DNA of 36,956 nt from Methanobacteriota archaeon (lineage in GTDB: Archaea; Thermoplasmatota; Poseidoniia; Poseidoniales; Poseidoniaceae). Under the pieces are notes generated by a model, which had not been told where the DNA came from, made no database searches, and was given only the letters and a program-made list of their open reading frames with translations. Both the position numbers and the translations under genes were made by a program. Each line of letters begins with the position of its first letter. The stretch's first letter is position 1. The stretch is from NCBI GenBank assembly GCA_018650165.1, contig JABIGM010000053.1, positions 1 to 36,956 of the forward strand. The letters run 5' to 3'. Below, piece by piece: positions 29,497 through 36,956 of this stretch.

Positions 29497-32400
29497 GTGA
29501 AGGTTAGTATGTCATGGCGAGACAAGGGTATCCCAATACTAATTTTCTCCATTTTCATATTCCAAATATCGGGCCCAATGGTCCCTTTCCCATCTGAGGA
29601 GTTATCTCCAAATGAGGTGTTTGAAGCACAAACAATAGGCCTTACAAGCGGGTCTGGACATGATTTGGAAGGAGATACAATCAGTGTCGATGGTAAAAGT
29701 TGGACAGTTCGAGGGGAATCGGTTTTAGATTACTGGAATAAGAATATCCATCCTGAATCTTCAAATGGTTCGGTGGACTTGGTTGTTACTGCTGATGGAG
29801 TTGGTTACGCTTGTTCGATTAATGGTACAGATATCAATATGCACACAATGCATCTCAATGGCTCTTTTGACACACTTCTAGTAGAGACTTTAGCAACAGG
29901 TCAGAGTTCTGAATGTGCGATTGGTATTACCGCTCAGAACCGAATTCAAATTGCTTACAACGTTGGAGACGACCTGCGCTTTGCACGCTTAGCAGAAGTA
30001 AATGCAGTTTATCAGGAGAGAACTTGGCATTTACGAACTATCGTTGAAGATTCGTTCAATGGTGGCTTAACGATTTCATTGGATTCAGAATCCCAAACAA
30101 ATCTTATTTTCCAAGATACCGACATGGCATTACATCATGTTTGGTTCAATAAAGCCTACTGGAATCATACAATTTTAGATGAAGGCCCAATCGGTGATGA
30201 CATAGAGGTTGCAATTGATTCCGGTGATATGATTCACGTGGTGTATACCAATTCTGCAGAAGGGGAAGTCCGTTTAATCAAATTCAATGAGACTTTGGAA
30301 ACTCGTCAAGTTCTAATCCGAGGTAACACAGTAAGTTCCGCAATTGGAATGGATTTGGATTCAAATGGTATTGAACAAATAACATATTCTAAATCCGATG
30401 GTTTAGGCCACAACACAATTTCTCTTCTTCGTAGCCTAGCGGGTAAAGATACAGGTAGAATCGACCCCGATGCCAAATGGGTCATCAATTATGATGATGA
30501 TTCAGTTGAAGGTATTGTGGCGAGTGGCGATTTGAATGGTGATGGGAGGGACGATTTAGTTTATACGGATCCTGATGGAAATGGAACCATTTCGATTCAC
30601 TATGGCTCACCGGATGGACCTGGTGCCCTCGCAGATAGAATCTTAGTGGGTTCACTTAGTGATTCTATGCTAGGTTCTGCCTTGGCGATTGGTGATTTCA
30701 ATTGTGACAGCATTGATGATATTGCATCTAGTGAGGCAGGACTTGGAACTAATAATTCAGGTTACATTTCAATTAGACTTGGTACCAGTTCAGGAATGTC
30801 AAACAATGTTTGGTGGGAAATGAATGGAAGTGATGATGATAACCTCGGAATGTCTCTTACATCACTTGGTGATGTGGAATCTGATGGATGCGATGATTTA
30901 GCTGTCGTAGCAAATAAGATGATTGAAGAAAACGCTCAACCTACTTTGTCAAAGAATGGCATGGTAGTAATTTATTCGGGAAACCAAACCTCGATGGTGC
31001 ACCATGCAAACATTACTCAAACGGAATCTGGAACAATGTTTGGTCGTCAAGTCATTGGAGATGGAGACATTAACGGAGATGGCTATCTCGATATGGTGGT
31101 TTCCAATACAGGAGACCAACTTAGCCCGACTGGATATTCTTCAGTGGAGTTCTTCCTTGGTAGTATAGACGGCATGGCTTCAACTCCGTCTGACACTCAC
31201 AGTGTTTCAACCCAAGGAAGATTATATGGATTTGAAATGGCCTTCGTAGGTGATGTCCATGGCGATGGCTATGATGATGTATTAATCAGCGAATTATATG
31301 CATCAACCACGCTATACCAATCTGGTAAAGTTCACATGTGGGATGGTTCAAGTTCTGGACCAATCGCAAATTGGACCACTACTGGTAACTACGCAAATGC
31401 ACTACTGGGTCAAACAATTTCTCCTGCAGGAGATATCAATGAAGACGGTTTTGATGATTTCTTGATGATGGCGCCTTCCAGTTCTAAATCAGGTAAAGTT
31501 GACTTATACCTTGGCTCTGCAACAGGTCCACGTAGTGAAACACAACTATTTGCTCAAGGTGCAAGCAATGAAAATGTAGGTTTGAACATTCTAGCAGGAT
31601 TCGACCTTAATGGCGATGGGATGGGAGAAATCCTCTATTCATCTAGAGATTTAACGCGTGGGGATGCTTTTGGCCCTGTTTTGACAATAATGTCAGAAAG
31701 AGATTGGGAATTTATTGATTTTGATTTCGACCATCCAGTAATCGGTATTGACATGAGCACCCCTCTACGTGGTAGTCCTTCGATAATGGCTATGCTTTCA
31801 GATTCCAGCCTTATTCTCTTGGAAAACACACCTGACGGAACACCATCTGGCCGCTGGGTGAGTCGAGATTTAGCAAATGCGGATGTTGCAAGAATGGGGA
31901 TCTCGAATGCTGGAAAACCATTGGTACTCTTACACTCTTCTAGTAATCTGATGACCTTGACTCTAACAGGCAATACTGCGATTGAATCGCAATTAAATTC
32001 TGGCACAGGCCTCGGGATTTCGCTGGGCTCATTTACGGATTCAAGCGGTAACCAGCGCTTAGGACACGCATCACCAACGTTCTCTTCGATATTCTATACT
32101 GAAGAAACAGCAACTGGCTTTACCACCTCAACATTACGTTCAAACATCGATTTATTGTATCCACTAGGTATGCATGTAGATTCAAATGATCTGTCTAGAA
32201 TGGTATATGTTGATGATGACGACCATATGGTTAGACTTGCAACCTTGAATGGAACTTGGGATGAAATTTCAATTCTCAATACAACAATCGGTGATGATTT
32301 TGATTCGGTTTGGGACAGTGATGACACACTCATATTTGCACAAATTGCAGTTTCAAATAATTCGACTATGCTTCAGGTAGTAGAATATCAAAATAGTACT

Positions 32401-35685: not shown

Positions 35686-36956
35686 ATGAGTGACGATACT
35701 GCAAATGTATCAATGCCAGAAGGCATTGAGGTCGATGAAGCAGCAGCTTATTTCGGTGTTTTCGAGTCTTCTGATGCCCTTCATCAAATGATGGAAATGT
35801 CACGCGAGAATGCATTTGAGAAGTTTTTCACGTTACTTTCTGACTTAGTTCTTCAGCCTGGAGATTTTGATTTTGAAATGGCAAGTGAAAGACTCTCTTG
35901 CGAAGGTGGAGAGATTTACTTCTTGGTTGCAGGACATCTTGGATTGATGTCCCTTCCCGAACAGTTGTCACTAGCAATTAGTGAAGGCCAATTTTCTGAT
36001 AGTGATTCGACCCAATTGCAAGATATTGCAGATCCTATGAGATTACTAAAATTGTTTGCAATTGCTCACCAAACCGGTGGGGGAGGCGAGACTGTAAAGT
36101 ATCTCAAAGGCATTGAATCACTAATGTCTAATCCTGCTGCAAATAAAGATGCCTTGCTCTCTTTAGCAAAAGAGGTTCAAGGTGCATTTGATGTTGCAGG
36201 ACATGTTACTCCAATTGCAAGTTTAGCAAGCAGTAGTGCTGTTGCAAGTGAAGTGGAAACAGCATATGTTCCACCAACACCTGTTGTTGAAAAATCAATT
36301 TCCAAATCTGTTCCAAAGGCTGTAGAGCCTGAACCAGTATCTGTACCTCTACCAAGTGCTGAGGAGTCAGTGCCACTTCCTGTTACAGAAGAGCCGGTAC
36401 CTTTGCCTTCCGAGGAAGCAATACCTCTACCCGATGTAGTTGAACCAGTATTAGAGCCCGATGTTCGTAAGGAATCAGAGAAAACCGAAGACGCATTTGC
36501 TGGAGCTTTCGGAATGGTAGAGCCGGAACCCGAACCAGAGCCTGAGCCAGAGCCTGAACCAGAGCCTGAACCAGAGCCTGAGCCGGAACCAGAGCCTGAA
36601 GCCGAACTCGAAGAAGCATTTGCTGCTGCAGATTTAGACAGCAGTGGTGGACTTTCAGTTGAAGAGGTTGCGCAAGCGACCGGATTAGGAATAGATGAAG
36701 CAGCAAAATTGCATGCCGAAGCAGATGTAGATGGCGATGGTCAAGTTACTCTAGATGAATTAAAATCCAAACCAGAAGTTATTGAAAAGATGGCACTGCC
36801 AAAACCGGTAAAGCCCATCCGTGGCGGTATACAAACGCCTCAAAATGCTAATCCTGCAGAACAGCAGCAACAGCAACAGCAACAGCAACAGCAACAGCAA
36901 CAGCAACAGCAACAGCAACAGCAACAGCAACAGCAACAGCAACAGCAACAGCAACA
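35686..36956 (+). CDS. 3'-truncated cytoplasmic protein with an N-terminal helical domain, Pro/Glu-rich linker, EF-hand pair and polyQ (>=423 aa); absent from the ORF track
   Basis: Translated by hand from ATG 35686 (MSDDTANVSMPEG...) with no stop before the window end. There is no signal peptide or TM. EF-hand loops are DLDSSGGLSVEE (36631-36666) and DVDGDGQVTLDE (36724-36759). Confidence 0.88.
   Translation, partial: MSDDTANVSMPEGIEVDEAAAYFGVFESSDALHQMMEMSRENAFEKFFTLLSDLVLQPGDFDFEMASERLSCEGGEIYFLVAGHLGLMSLPEQLSLAISEGQFSDSDSTQLQDIADPMRLLKLFAIAHQTGGGGETVKYLKGIESLMSNPAANKDALLSLAKEVQGAFDVAGHVTPIASLASSSAVASEVETAYVPPTPVVEKSISKSVPKAVEPEPVSVPLPSAEESVPLPVTEEPVPLPSEEAIPLPDVVEPVLEPDVRKESEKTEDAFAGAFGMVEPEPEPEPEPEPEPEPEPEPEPEPEPEAELEEAFAAADLDSSGGLSVEEVAQATGLGIDEAAKLHAEADVDGDGQVTLDELKSKPEVIEKMALPKPVKPIRGGIQTPQNANPAEQQQQQQQQQQQQQQQQQQQQQQQQQQQQQQQ
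36520..36600 (+). repeat. Codon-degenerate dipeptide repeat E(PE)13
   Basis: 27 alternating Glu/Pro codons using mixed GAG/GAA and CCT/CCA/CCG/CCC. Confidence 0.92.
36862..36956 (+). repeat. Perfect (CAGCAA)15 microsatellite encoding polyglutamine (31 Gln, runs off the window end)
   Basis: CAG, then 15 exact CAGCAA units (36865-36954), then CA at the terminus. Confidence 0.9.

Follow-up and report, generated by a model that had tools for sequence, protein, structure and literature searches.

Prokaryotic surface proteins with FG-GAP-like and TSP3 repeats have been described for their ectodomains only, and metazoan integrin alpha chains are type-I membrane proteins in which a membrane-distal, seven-bladed FG-GAP propeller with Ca loops is combined with a cytoplasmic tail. 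Here we describe a locus of the archaeal order Poseidoniales in which the same extracellular Ca-binding modules as in those prokaryotic proteins occur in a giant surface protein (gene 1) with a conserved cytoplasmic end, followed on the same strand by the gene for a predicted cytoplasmic scaffold (gene 2). The locus lies on contig C50 (JABIGM010000053.1), which in its entire length of 36,956 bp is the window of this study and belongs to a genome bin (G000) of 1.75 Mb that is 80% complete. The Poseidoniales are the Marine Group II archaea, with the Poseidoniaceae as Marine Group IIa; none of them has been cultured, no other archaea are as abundant in surface oceans, and to our knowledge their attachment to particles or algae has so far been inferred from gene lists only. 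The gene pair is specific to this order. Rinke et al. 2019 (PMC6461757) listed "thrombospondin genes" among the adhesion traits of Poseidoniales, and Ca-binding families that are specific to the lineage have been mentioned as well (PMC9258230). In our literature search, we found no paper that describes the pair, the conserved cytoplasmic tail domain or its downstream partner, which agrees with a preliminary description of the window that knew of no earlier account of such a pair in this lineage. New here are the join of contig C50 with contig C4, the exceptions to the linkage of the two genes, a synteny control, a triple-propeller model, and a lead that connects PLP motifs with Trp-rich tails.

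Judged from gene order, adjacency, co-orientation and joint absence of the two genes are evident across the order, and the pair is conserved, co-oriented and probably co-transcribed. We tentatively propose, with slightly less than even confidence, that the two genes are functionally coupled, i.e. that they are transcribed together and that their products act together. Gene 1 encodes a giant, probably glycosylated and Ca-stiffened surface protein in which three propellers, the middle one of the FG-GAP type, are carried by a stalk of about 19 disulfide-bonded TSP3-like Ca repeats and anchored by one transmembrane (TM) helix, from which a mostly disordered tail of 173 aa reaches into the cytoplasm and ends in a helical domain of about 55 aa. 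Gene 2 encodes a predicted cytoplasmic scaffold that consists of an N-terminal domain (N-domain), a linker with [VI]PLP, DAFAGAF and PKPVKPxR motifs, two EF-hands as a Ca-sensing pair, a Gln-rich tract and, at its end, a putative zinc ribbon. The surface protein may serve as ligand- or particle-binding adhesin, and the gene-2 product could act inside the cell as its adaptor, perhaps one that responds to Ca, and tie the tail to other components of the cell. Outside-in signalling or a physical interaction of the two products, as the preliminary description had suggested, is at present hypothetical. If true, an adhesin with a conserved folded cytoplasmic end and a lineage-specific scaffold would constitute an unusual prokaryotic link between outside and inside, to which the eukaryote-like features of the scaffold (EF-hands, proline motifs, polyglutamine (polyQ), zinc ribbon) would add. 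If the two genes are mere neighbours, gene 1 would be one more FG-GAP/TSP3 adhesin, and gene 2 would encode an orphan protein.

Linkage of the two genes across the Poseidoniales

For a survey of the linkage, the same 201 Poseidoniales genomes were searched with profiles of the gene-2 N-domain (alignment A2) and of the C-terminal tail domain of gene 1 (alignment A1). The N-domain was detected in 122 and the tail domain in 124 of these genomes. When the lists of places were compared by eye, 119 of the 122 gene-2 genomes were seen to have, on the contig and strand of gene 2, an open reading frame (ORF) of about 2100 aa whose tail ends 70-260 bp before gene 2, so that the linkage assumed in the preliminary description is indeed seen in related genomes. 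The pair spans two families of the order, and at genus level the presence and absence of the N-domain and of the tail domain are nearly identical. Both genes are absent from genera g5, g7, g23 and g24 in the profile searches, and genera g8 and g10 have no gene 2 and only one marginal tail match each (E 0.009 and 0.003); all of these are small-genome genera (1.2-1.7 Mb) of family f3. In three genomes without both genes (G039, G029, G035), an aminopeptidase gene directly abuts the gene for thiamine pyrophosphokinase (TPK), which elsewhere precedes gene 1, and the two genes are thus absent together, while the backbone around them is conserved. The archaellum, which is a proposed attachment organelle, was considered as a further element that might vary together with the pair, and this was rejected within f3, where the pair occurs in genera g3, g4 and g21 in the absence of archaellin, and archaellin in g10 and g24 in the absence of the pair.

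The spacer between the two genes was compared at 25 loci. There is no oligo-T run of five or more between gene 1 and gene 2 at any of them, and a Shine-Dalgarno sequence precedes gene 2 in every locus examined, which together fits read-through transcription. In the window, gene 2 starts with an ATG at 35686, 69 bp past the stop of gene 1, and has its own Shine-Dalgarno sequence, GGAGGG, at 35673-35678; the distance and the presence of such a sequence had been read from the window before. The spacers of family f1 share the sequence GGCATCAsACTCAAkAAG about 40 nt before the gene-2 start, which, as far as can be judged from the sequence, could serve as internal promoter or in RNA processing. Its version in the window, GGCATCAGACTCAATAAG, is common to genus g1 and recognisable in genera g12 and g18.

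Architecture of the surface protein

The anatomy of gene 1, like that of gene 2, is near certain. The encoded protein has 2039 aa if translation starts at the GTG at 29497, or 2035 aa from the ATG at 29509 that is used in the public gene call (P0003), and full-length orthologues of 2014-2160 aa are labelled Poseidoniales or Poseidoniaceae by their sources; in public records they are called "FG-GAP-like repeat-containing protein" or "hypothetical protein". The basic and hydrophobic N-terminus together with one strong TM segment predicts a type-I topology, and the signal peptide and single TM helix named in the preliminary description were both recovered (Table 1). The ectodomain contains 31 N-x-S/T sequons and 30 Cys, and the cytoplasmic tail has neither. 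FG-GAP is the sole Pfam family above cut-off (87.4 bits, E 4.7e-25, on aa 320-760; FG-GAP_3 with 61.7 bits). In this region, seven Ca loops of the type GDxxxDGxxD lie at aa 344, 399, 458, 523, 585, 645 and 703, and with these seven motifs (55-65 residues apart) the earlier statement of exactly seven blades stands; the AlphaFold2 (AF2) model has 28 strands here, which corresponds to seven blades. Two further propellers that flank the FG-GAP propeller had been overlooked. They matched no Pfam family and became apparent in an AF2 model of aa 30-1175 (28 orthologues; pLDDT 86, pTM 0.71), which is all-beta and shows three consecutive propellers with the FG-GAP propeller in the center. The best Foldseek matches of this ectodomain were DDB1 and CPSF160 (E 1e-18 to 1e-15), which likewise have three consecutive beta-propellers per chain, but the TM-scores are only 0.14-0.21 and these proteins are cytoplasmic or nuclear scaffolds of eukaryotes; the modelled likeness is architectural only, and not one of evident homology or function. 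In the stalk (aa 1174 to 1792), a regular-expression count gave 18-19 copies of DxDxD[GS]xxD, and Cys pairs recur there at regular distances, 11 in number; the TSP3-like repeats described before are therefore present, but somewhat fewer than the approximately 20 that had been given. The Pfam family TSP_3 (PF02412) reached 19.8 bits on aa 1480-1860, which is under the 25-bit cut-off, and a precomputed PF02412 match is present in three of the listed gene-1 orthologues.

The cytoplasmic tail, formerly estimated at about 180 aa, was confirmed with a length of 173 aa. It starts with KSRGGVDLDFDDDWDDD, and the block order of its disordered part recurs in orthologues. When 23 sequences of the C-terminal tail domain, drawn from two families, were aligned (alignments A1 and A4), the residues F, LQ, GW, QS and I did not vary. 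The tail domain has no Pfam match and no match to sequences in the PDB, where a profile search gave chance-level matches only, and feature searches of a protein atlas with the tail domain and the gene-2 N-domain returned no usable match. A likeness of its last two helices to UBA/NAC or helix-turn-helix motifs was dropped, as Pfam gave no support for it at E up to 1, and "small proteins" that seemed to consist of the tail domain are fragmentary gene calls of gene 1. In genus g6 (G118), the tail domain is found right behind the TM helix of another surface protein of 1464 aa (L038:306-4697, G118:C17) and likewise behind that of a TSP3-type protein (L040:2302-2862, G118:C85); there it has EE in place of the otherwise near-invariant ER, and this genome has no gene 2.

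The predicted cytoplasmic scaffold

The contig ends before gene 2 does, which had gone unnoticed in the preliminary description. The translation of gene 2 runs into a polyQ tract that reaches the last base of C50 and counts 31 or more Gln, and a search of the genome bin with this end led to the first bases of contig C4, which in the frame of gene 2 encode QQQAWAQ repeats, then CRGCRIGVDLNWRFCPICGTQNR and a stop (G000:C4:2-241, the last ~79 residues). As gene-2 relatives from the same genus end in polyQ and a zinc ribbon and are followed by the same downstream gene, which on C4 is a convergent aminopeptidase-like gene, the two contigs are neighbours, and from the sequences the assembly is seen to have broken within the CAG/CAA repeat between them. 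Full-length relatives of gene 2 have 470-560 aa. The pure (CAG/CAA)n tract at the break comprises at least 93 nt (36862-36956, G000:C4:1-120), and the polyQ count of gene 2 therefore is a lower bound. The part on C4 ends in a CRGC-x13-CPIC zinc ribbon motif, which is below the cut-off of DZR (PF12773; 19.4 bits versus 27.3) and whose four Cys are present in 19 of 19 full-length representatives, a set that was chosen on this very motif. With the C-terminus added, the translation still has no hydrophobic segment, signal peptide or TM helix, and the non-export that had been read from the truncated gene holds for the completed protein, which from these features is predicted to be cytoplasmic.

The N-domain is well modelled by AF2 (21 orthologues; pLDDT 84.7, pTM 0.78) as a domain of ten helices, for which neither fold nor family relatives could be identified. 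Foldseek against the PDB gave a best E of 0.33 with TM-scores of at most 0.28, VIA-align against 48,161 representatives a best Z of 3.9, and the ESM Atlas TM-scores of at most 0.38; there was no Pfam match below E 0.1, and NCBIfam returned low-complexity or sub-threshold matches only. A profile of the N-domain retrieved 118 clusters from 1.84 billion representative proteins, and nearly all of them are orthologues or fragments, so that the gene-2 family, by this search, is essentially confined to the Poseidoniales lineage. Throughout these clusters the N-domain is N-terminal, save in P0200 and P0192, which were considered as fusions and look like frameshifted read-throughs. Two weak matches stand apart, i.e. 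P0226 on a contig of another archaeon (E 2e-7) and P0239 of unstated source (E 6e-4); the latter has domain, Pro-rich linker and zinc ribbon as in gene 2, with a CARDB surface protein encoded within two genes downstream. P0226 is a protein of 183 aa (L042, GCA_043799545.1, 10001-10552) on a contig that is rich in genes for small GTPases of the Arf/Ras/Roc type, and the tail domain is absent from the gene upstream of it.

The Pro-rich motifs, two EF-hands and polyQ that the preliminary description had listed for gene 2 are all there (Table 1). EF-hand_1 (PF00036) reached 34.2 bits at a cut-off of 25.4, and the pair model EF-hand_7 (PF13499) remained just below its cut-off (29.6 versus 30). Like in calmodulin or CIB, gene 2 has two loops of the canonical 12-residue type about 30 aa apart, but it has only this one pair, which is embedded in a protein of about 500 aa and absent in several orthologues, and the conserved parts of gene 2 are an unrelated helical domain and the zinc ribbon. 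The description of gene 2 as an EF-hand/polyQ partner thus fits G000 and most genera of family f1, as well as some f3 genera (g11, g21), but not g9, g22, g4 and G212, where these elements are missing. EF-hands and polyQ therefore do not belong to the conserved core of the gene-2 family, which consists of N-domain, proline-rich linker and zinc ribbon.

Table 1. Positions of the gene pair, its predicted parts and related features (window coordinates unless a contig is named)
Feature	Position	Strand	Basis or remark
Gene 1, type-I membrane Ca-binding surface protein	29497-35616	+	ORF and translation
Signal-peptide-like N-terminus (basic start, hydrophobic aa 11-32)	29497-29592	+	Kyte-Doolittle scan
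Beta-propeller 1, aa ~60-320	29674-30456	+	AF2 model m74064a7317a3, all-beta blades
FG-GAP beta-propeller, seven blades, aa ~328-734	30478-31698	+	Pfam, Ca-loop motifs, AF2 model
Beta-propeller 3, aa ~737-1151	31705-32949	+	AF2 model
Stalk, ~19 TSP3-like Ca-binding repeats and 11 Cys pairs, aa ~1170-1830	33004-34986	+	Regular-expression count
Single TM helix, aa ~1840-1866, then KSR	35014-35094	+	Kyte-Doolittle maximum 2.77
Disordered tail with an acidic block (D/E at 16 of 26 aa), then Pro/Gly/Arg repeats and a basic block, KKVAKRK	35095-35448	+	Composition
Conserved C-terminal tail domain, ~55 aa, helical, LF...ER.IL.QLQ.TGW...QSR.I	35449-35613	+	Alignments A1, A4
Spacer, 69 bp, with motif GGCATCAGACTCAATAAG (35632-35649) and Shine-Dalgarno sequence GGAGGG (35673-35678)	35617-35685	+	Sequence; spacers of 25 loci
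Gene 2, cytoplasmic modular scaffold (predicted)	35686-36956, continues G000:C4:2-241	+	Translation; 3' end cut by contig end
N-domain, ~180 aa, ten helices	35710-36255	+	AF2 model
Four [VI]PLP motifs in the linker	36343-36432	+	
DAFAGAF short motif	36490-36510	+	Matched in 11/19 full-length representatives; visible across genera
(PE)13 spacer	36523-36600	+	
EF-hand pair, loops DLDSSGGLSVEE and DVDGDGQVTLDE	36631-36759	+	Pfam
Basic-proline motif LPKPVKPIR	36796-36822	+	Conserved by eye in printed orthologues
PolyQ tract, (CAG/CAA)n, to contig end	36862-36954	+	Translation
TSP3-like membrane protein, 839 aa	24199-26718		Upstream of gene 1
Trp-tail membrane protein, 418 aa	26711-27967		Three genes upstream of gene 1
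Other Trp-rich tails of G000	C47:445-540, C16:3420-3515, C18:258-353, C6:1212-1307, C12:65691-65774		

Functional coupling and its alternatives

What speaks against a functional coupling of the two genes? A contact of their products would be a prediction from gene context, and a complex prediction with the N-domain (alignment A3) and the tail domain (alignment A4) ended with a score of 0.00, which is neither for nor against binding. The aminopeptidase gene, for which no functional relation to the pair is evident, occurs in 197 of the 201 genomes and adjoins gene 2 in most of the rows compared. The pair thus lies in a block of generally conserved synteny, and little can be concluded from adjacency by itself. 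An intact gene 2 has been kept without any gene-1 tail match in the genome in G025 and G027 (both f2) and in G212; in G212 the order is TPK - gene 2 - aminopeptidase, with gene 1 alone gone, and in G027 gene 2 directly follows the gene for a membrane protein of 431 aa with a Trp-rich tail. Conversely, genus g6 has the tail domain on the two proteins mentioned above but no gene 2. The EF-hands and polyQ, on which the idea of Ca signalling was based, are missing in several f3 orthologues and in G212, and the genera without both genes may represent one or few loss events. It could therefore be that gene 1 encodes a stand-alone adhesin whose tail domain has a role of its own, e.g. in clustering, sorting or turnover, and that gene 2 is unrelated and adjacent only since the region is rarely rearranged. 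We consider this rather unlikely, albeit a serious alternative. It would be in agreement with the TPK and aminopeptidase flanks being as syntenic as the pair, with the occurrence of either partner without the other, and with the finding that among the 118 clusters there is no genuine fusion of the N-domain to gene 1 of the Rosetta-stone kind. However, it does not account for the fact that both genes lie on the same strand with a short spacer that has no terminator-like T-run, and with a Shine-Dalgarno sequence ahead of gene 2 at every locus examined, nor for the small-genome genera that lack both genes but have the flanks, and both products are predicted to be found at the cytoplasmic side of the same membrane region. 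Another known type of system would be approached if gene 1 were the archaeal counterpart of integrin alpha and gene 2 a CIB-like EF-hand protein that binds the tail, with signalling in both directions. The seven-bladed FG-GAP propeller with its Ca loops, the single TM helix, the cytoplasmic tail and the adjacent EF-hand gene are what such a system should have, and the preliminary description had seen a resemblance to integrins in them. Beyond the propeller, this resemblance was lost. Instead of the Ig-like thigh and calf legs of integrin alpha, the model has two more propellers and the stalk of about 19 TSP3-like repeats, and thigh, calf-1 and calf-2 (Pfam Integrin_alpha2) had no match at E up to 1 on the gene-1 segments. 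The tail starts with KSRGGVDLDFDDDWDDD and thus without the membrane-proximal GFFKR motif, and with its 173 aa it ends in a folded domain. As judged by family searches, FG-GAP is the only family common to gene 1 and integrin alpha, and FG-GAP propellers are widespread in bacterial surface proteins (Bacteroidota, Chloroflexota and others). The N-domain showed no fold or family likeness to the tail adaptors talin, kindlin, CIB and filamin in the Pfam, Foldseek, VIA-align and Atlas searches, and the EF-hands are dispensable in part of the gene-2 family. Integrin beta (PF00362) had no match in the 80% complete G000, in a search that lacked a positive control, as PF00362 matched none of the control genomes either. 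An integrin-type system is already contradicted on two defining features and seems very improbable.

A further alternative retains gene 2 as a cytoplasmic binding protein but attributes more than one partner to it. Gene 2 could in principle be a multivalent hub for several surface proteins, with the N-domain taking the gene-1 tail and the [VI]PLP-containing, proline-rich linker taking Trp-rich beta-meander tail modules of about 26-35 aa, which we regard as improbable. Such Trp-rich modules (about 30 aa, D.nG..W+...DG...WWd.....W) terminate the cytoplasmic tails of six or more surface proteins in G000 that are not related to each other, and occur in 168 of the 201 genomes. The six Trp-rich tails of G000 include one that is encoded three genes upstream of gene 1, where the protein ends in GMLWRRHDDGEVDWWDRSSLNWKRW (tail at 27863-27964). 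Among the 2812 open frames of 100 aa or more that a six-frame translation of G000 gives, gene 2 has the highest count of [VI]PLP motifs, which may resemble the PPLP ligands of class-II WW domains, and 12 of 19 full-length representatives have two or more PLP motifs, where 0.06-0.44 are expected by shuffling, i.e. a 5- to 30-fold enrichment. Strong matches to the Trp-rich tail, mostly in several copies, are found in all genera that have gene 2, with f2 and G212, both without gene 1, among them, and the genera without gene 2 have either no such tail (g6, g10, g24) or one weak and divergent copy (g5, g7, g8, g23); in G027, as mentioned, gene 2 comes directly after a Trp-tail protein. Yet 7 of the 19 representatives are without any PLP motif, the orthologues of f3, f2 and G212 read without it although these genomes have Trp-rich tails, and the divergent tail persists in genomes that have no gene 2. 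The module itself has no Pfam match at E up to 1, WW domains (PF00397) included, and only chance-level matches in a profile search of PDB sequences, and its W...G..WW...W pattern is more compact than that of WW domains, in which two Trp lie about 20-22 residues apart. Moreover, the phyletic pattern may mirror genome streamlining in few related genera. If the hub were nevertheless real, it would also give a reason for the wide occurrence of Trp-rich tails on the other surface proteins. We would assign only a low probability to the view that gene 2, Ca-responsiveness included, is in this way an intracellular partner of Poseidoniales surface proteins, and it is similarly doubtful that polyQ and zinc ribbon cluster or anchor such an assembly, which would then be an archaeal analogue, not a homologue, of the eukaryotic adhesion plaques that are built from short linear motifs and domains. 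Like the tail domain of gene 1, the Trp-rich module appears as a conserved cytoplasmic handle on Poseidoniales surface proteins, but its sequence is another one, it probably forms a beta-meander and not helices, and it is present in many copies, whereas the tail domain is single-copy in G000.

Three other proteins of G000 contain motifs of a similar kind. A surface protein of 1629 aa (G000:C17:1600-6486, minus strand) has a cytoplasmic tail with three LPPLP motifs and a terminal CxxC...CxxC zinc ribbon, and thereby has the combination of motif and ribbon known from gene 2 in cis on a membrane protein. The other two have proline motifs of a eukaryote-like kind; a protein of 399 aa (G000:C22:313-1509, plus strand) starts with (MPLPPPP)3, and in a protein of 709 aa (G000:C36:40370-42496, plus strand) a SAP-like N-terminus is followed by two VPLP motifs.

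Genomic surroundings

The families of gene 1 and gene 2 are each single-copy in G000, and the window around gene 1 is rich in genes for surface proteins and glycosylation. Its neighbours include an M60 peptidase, a beta-helix/PKD protein, glycosyltransferases of the families GT2 and GT4, an Lnb_N protein, and the TPK gene, which is encoded on the strand opposite to gene 1. Upstream of gene 1, a compact unit (24199-28832) consists of the genes for the TSP3-like protein of 839 aa and the Trp-tail protein of 418 aa, which overlap by 8 nt, and for the Lnb_N/DUF4105 protein. The Lnb_N-like gene of this unit was seen only in a relative from the same genus (G004). The TSP3-like and Trp-tail genes also precede gene 1 in genomes of family f3, and in G027 they directly precede gene 2.

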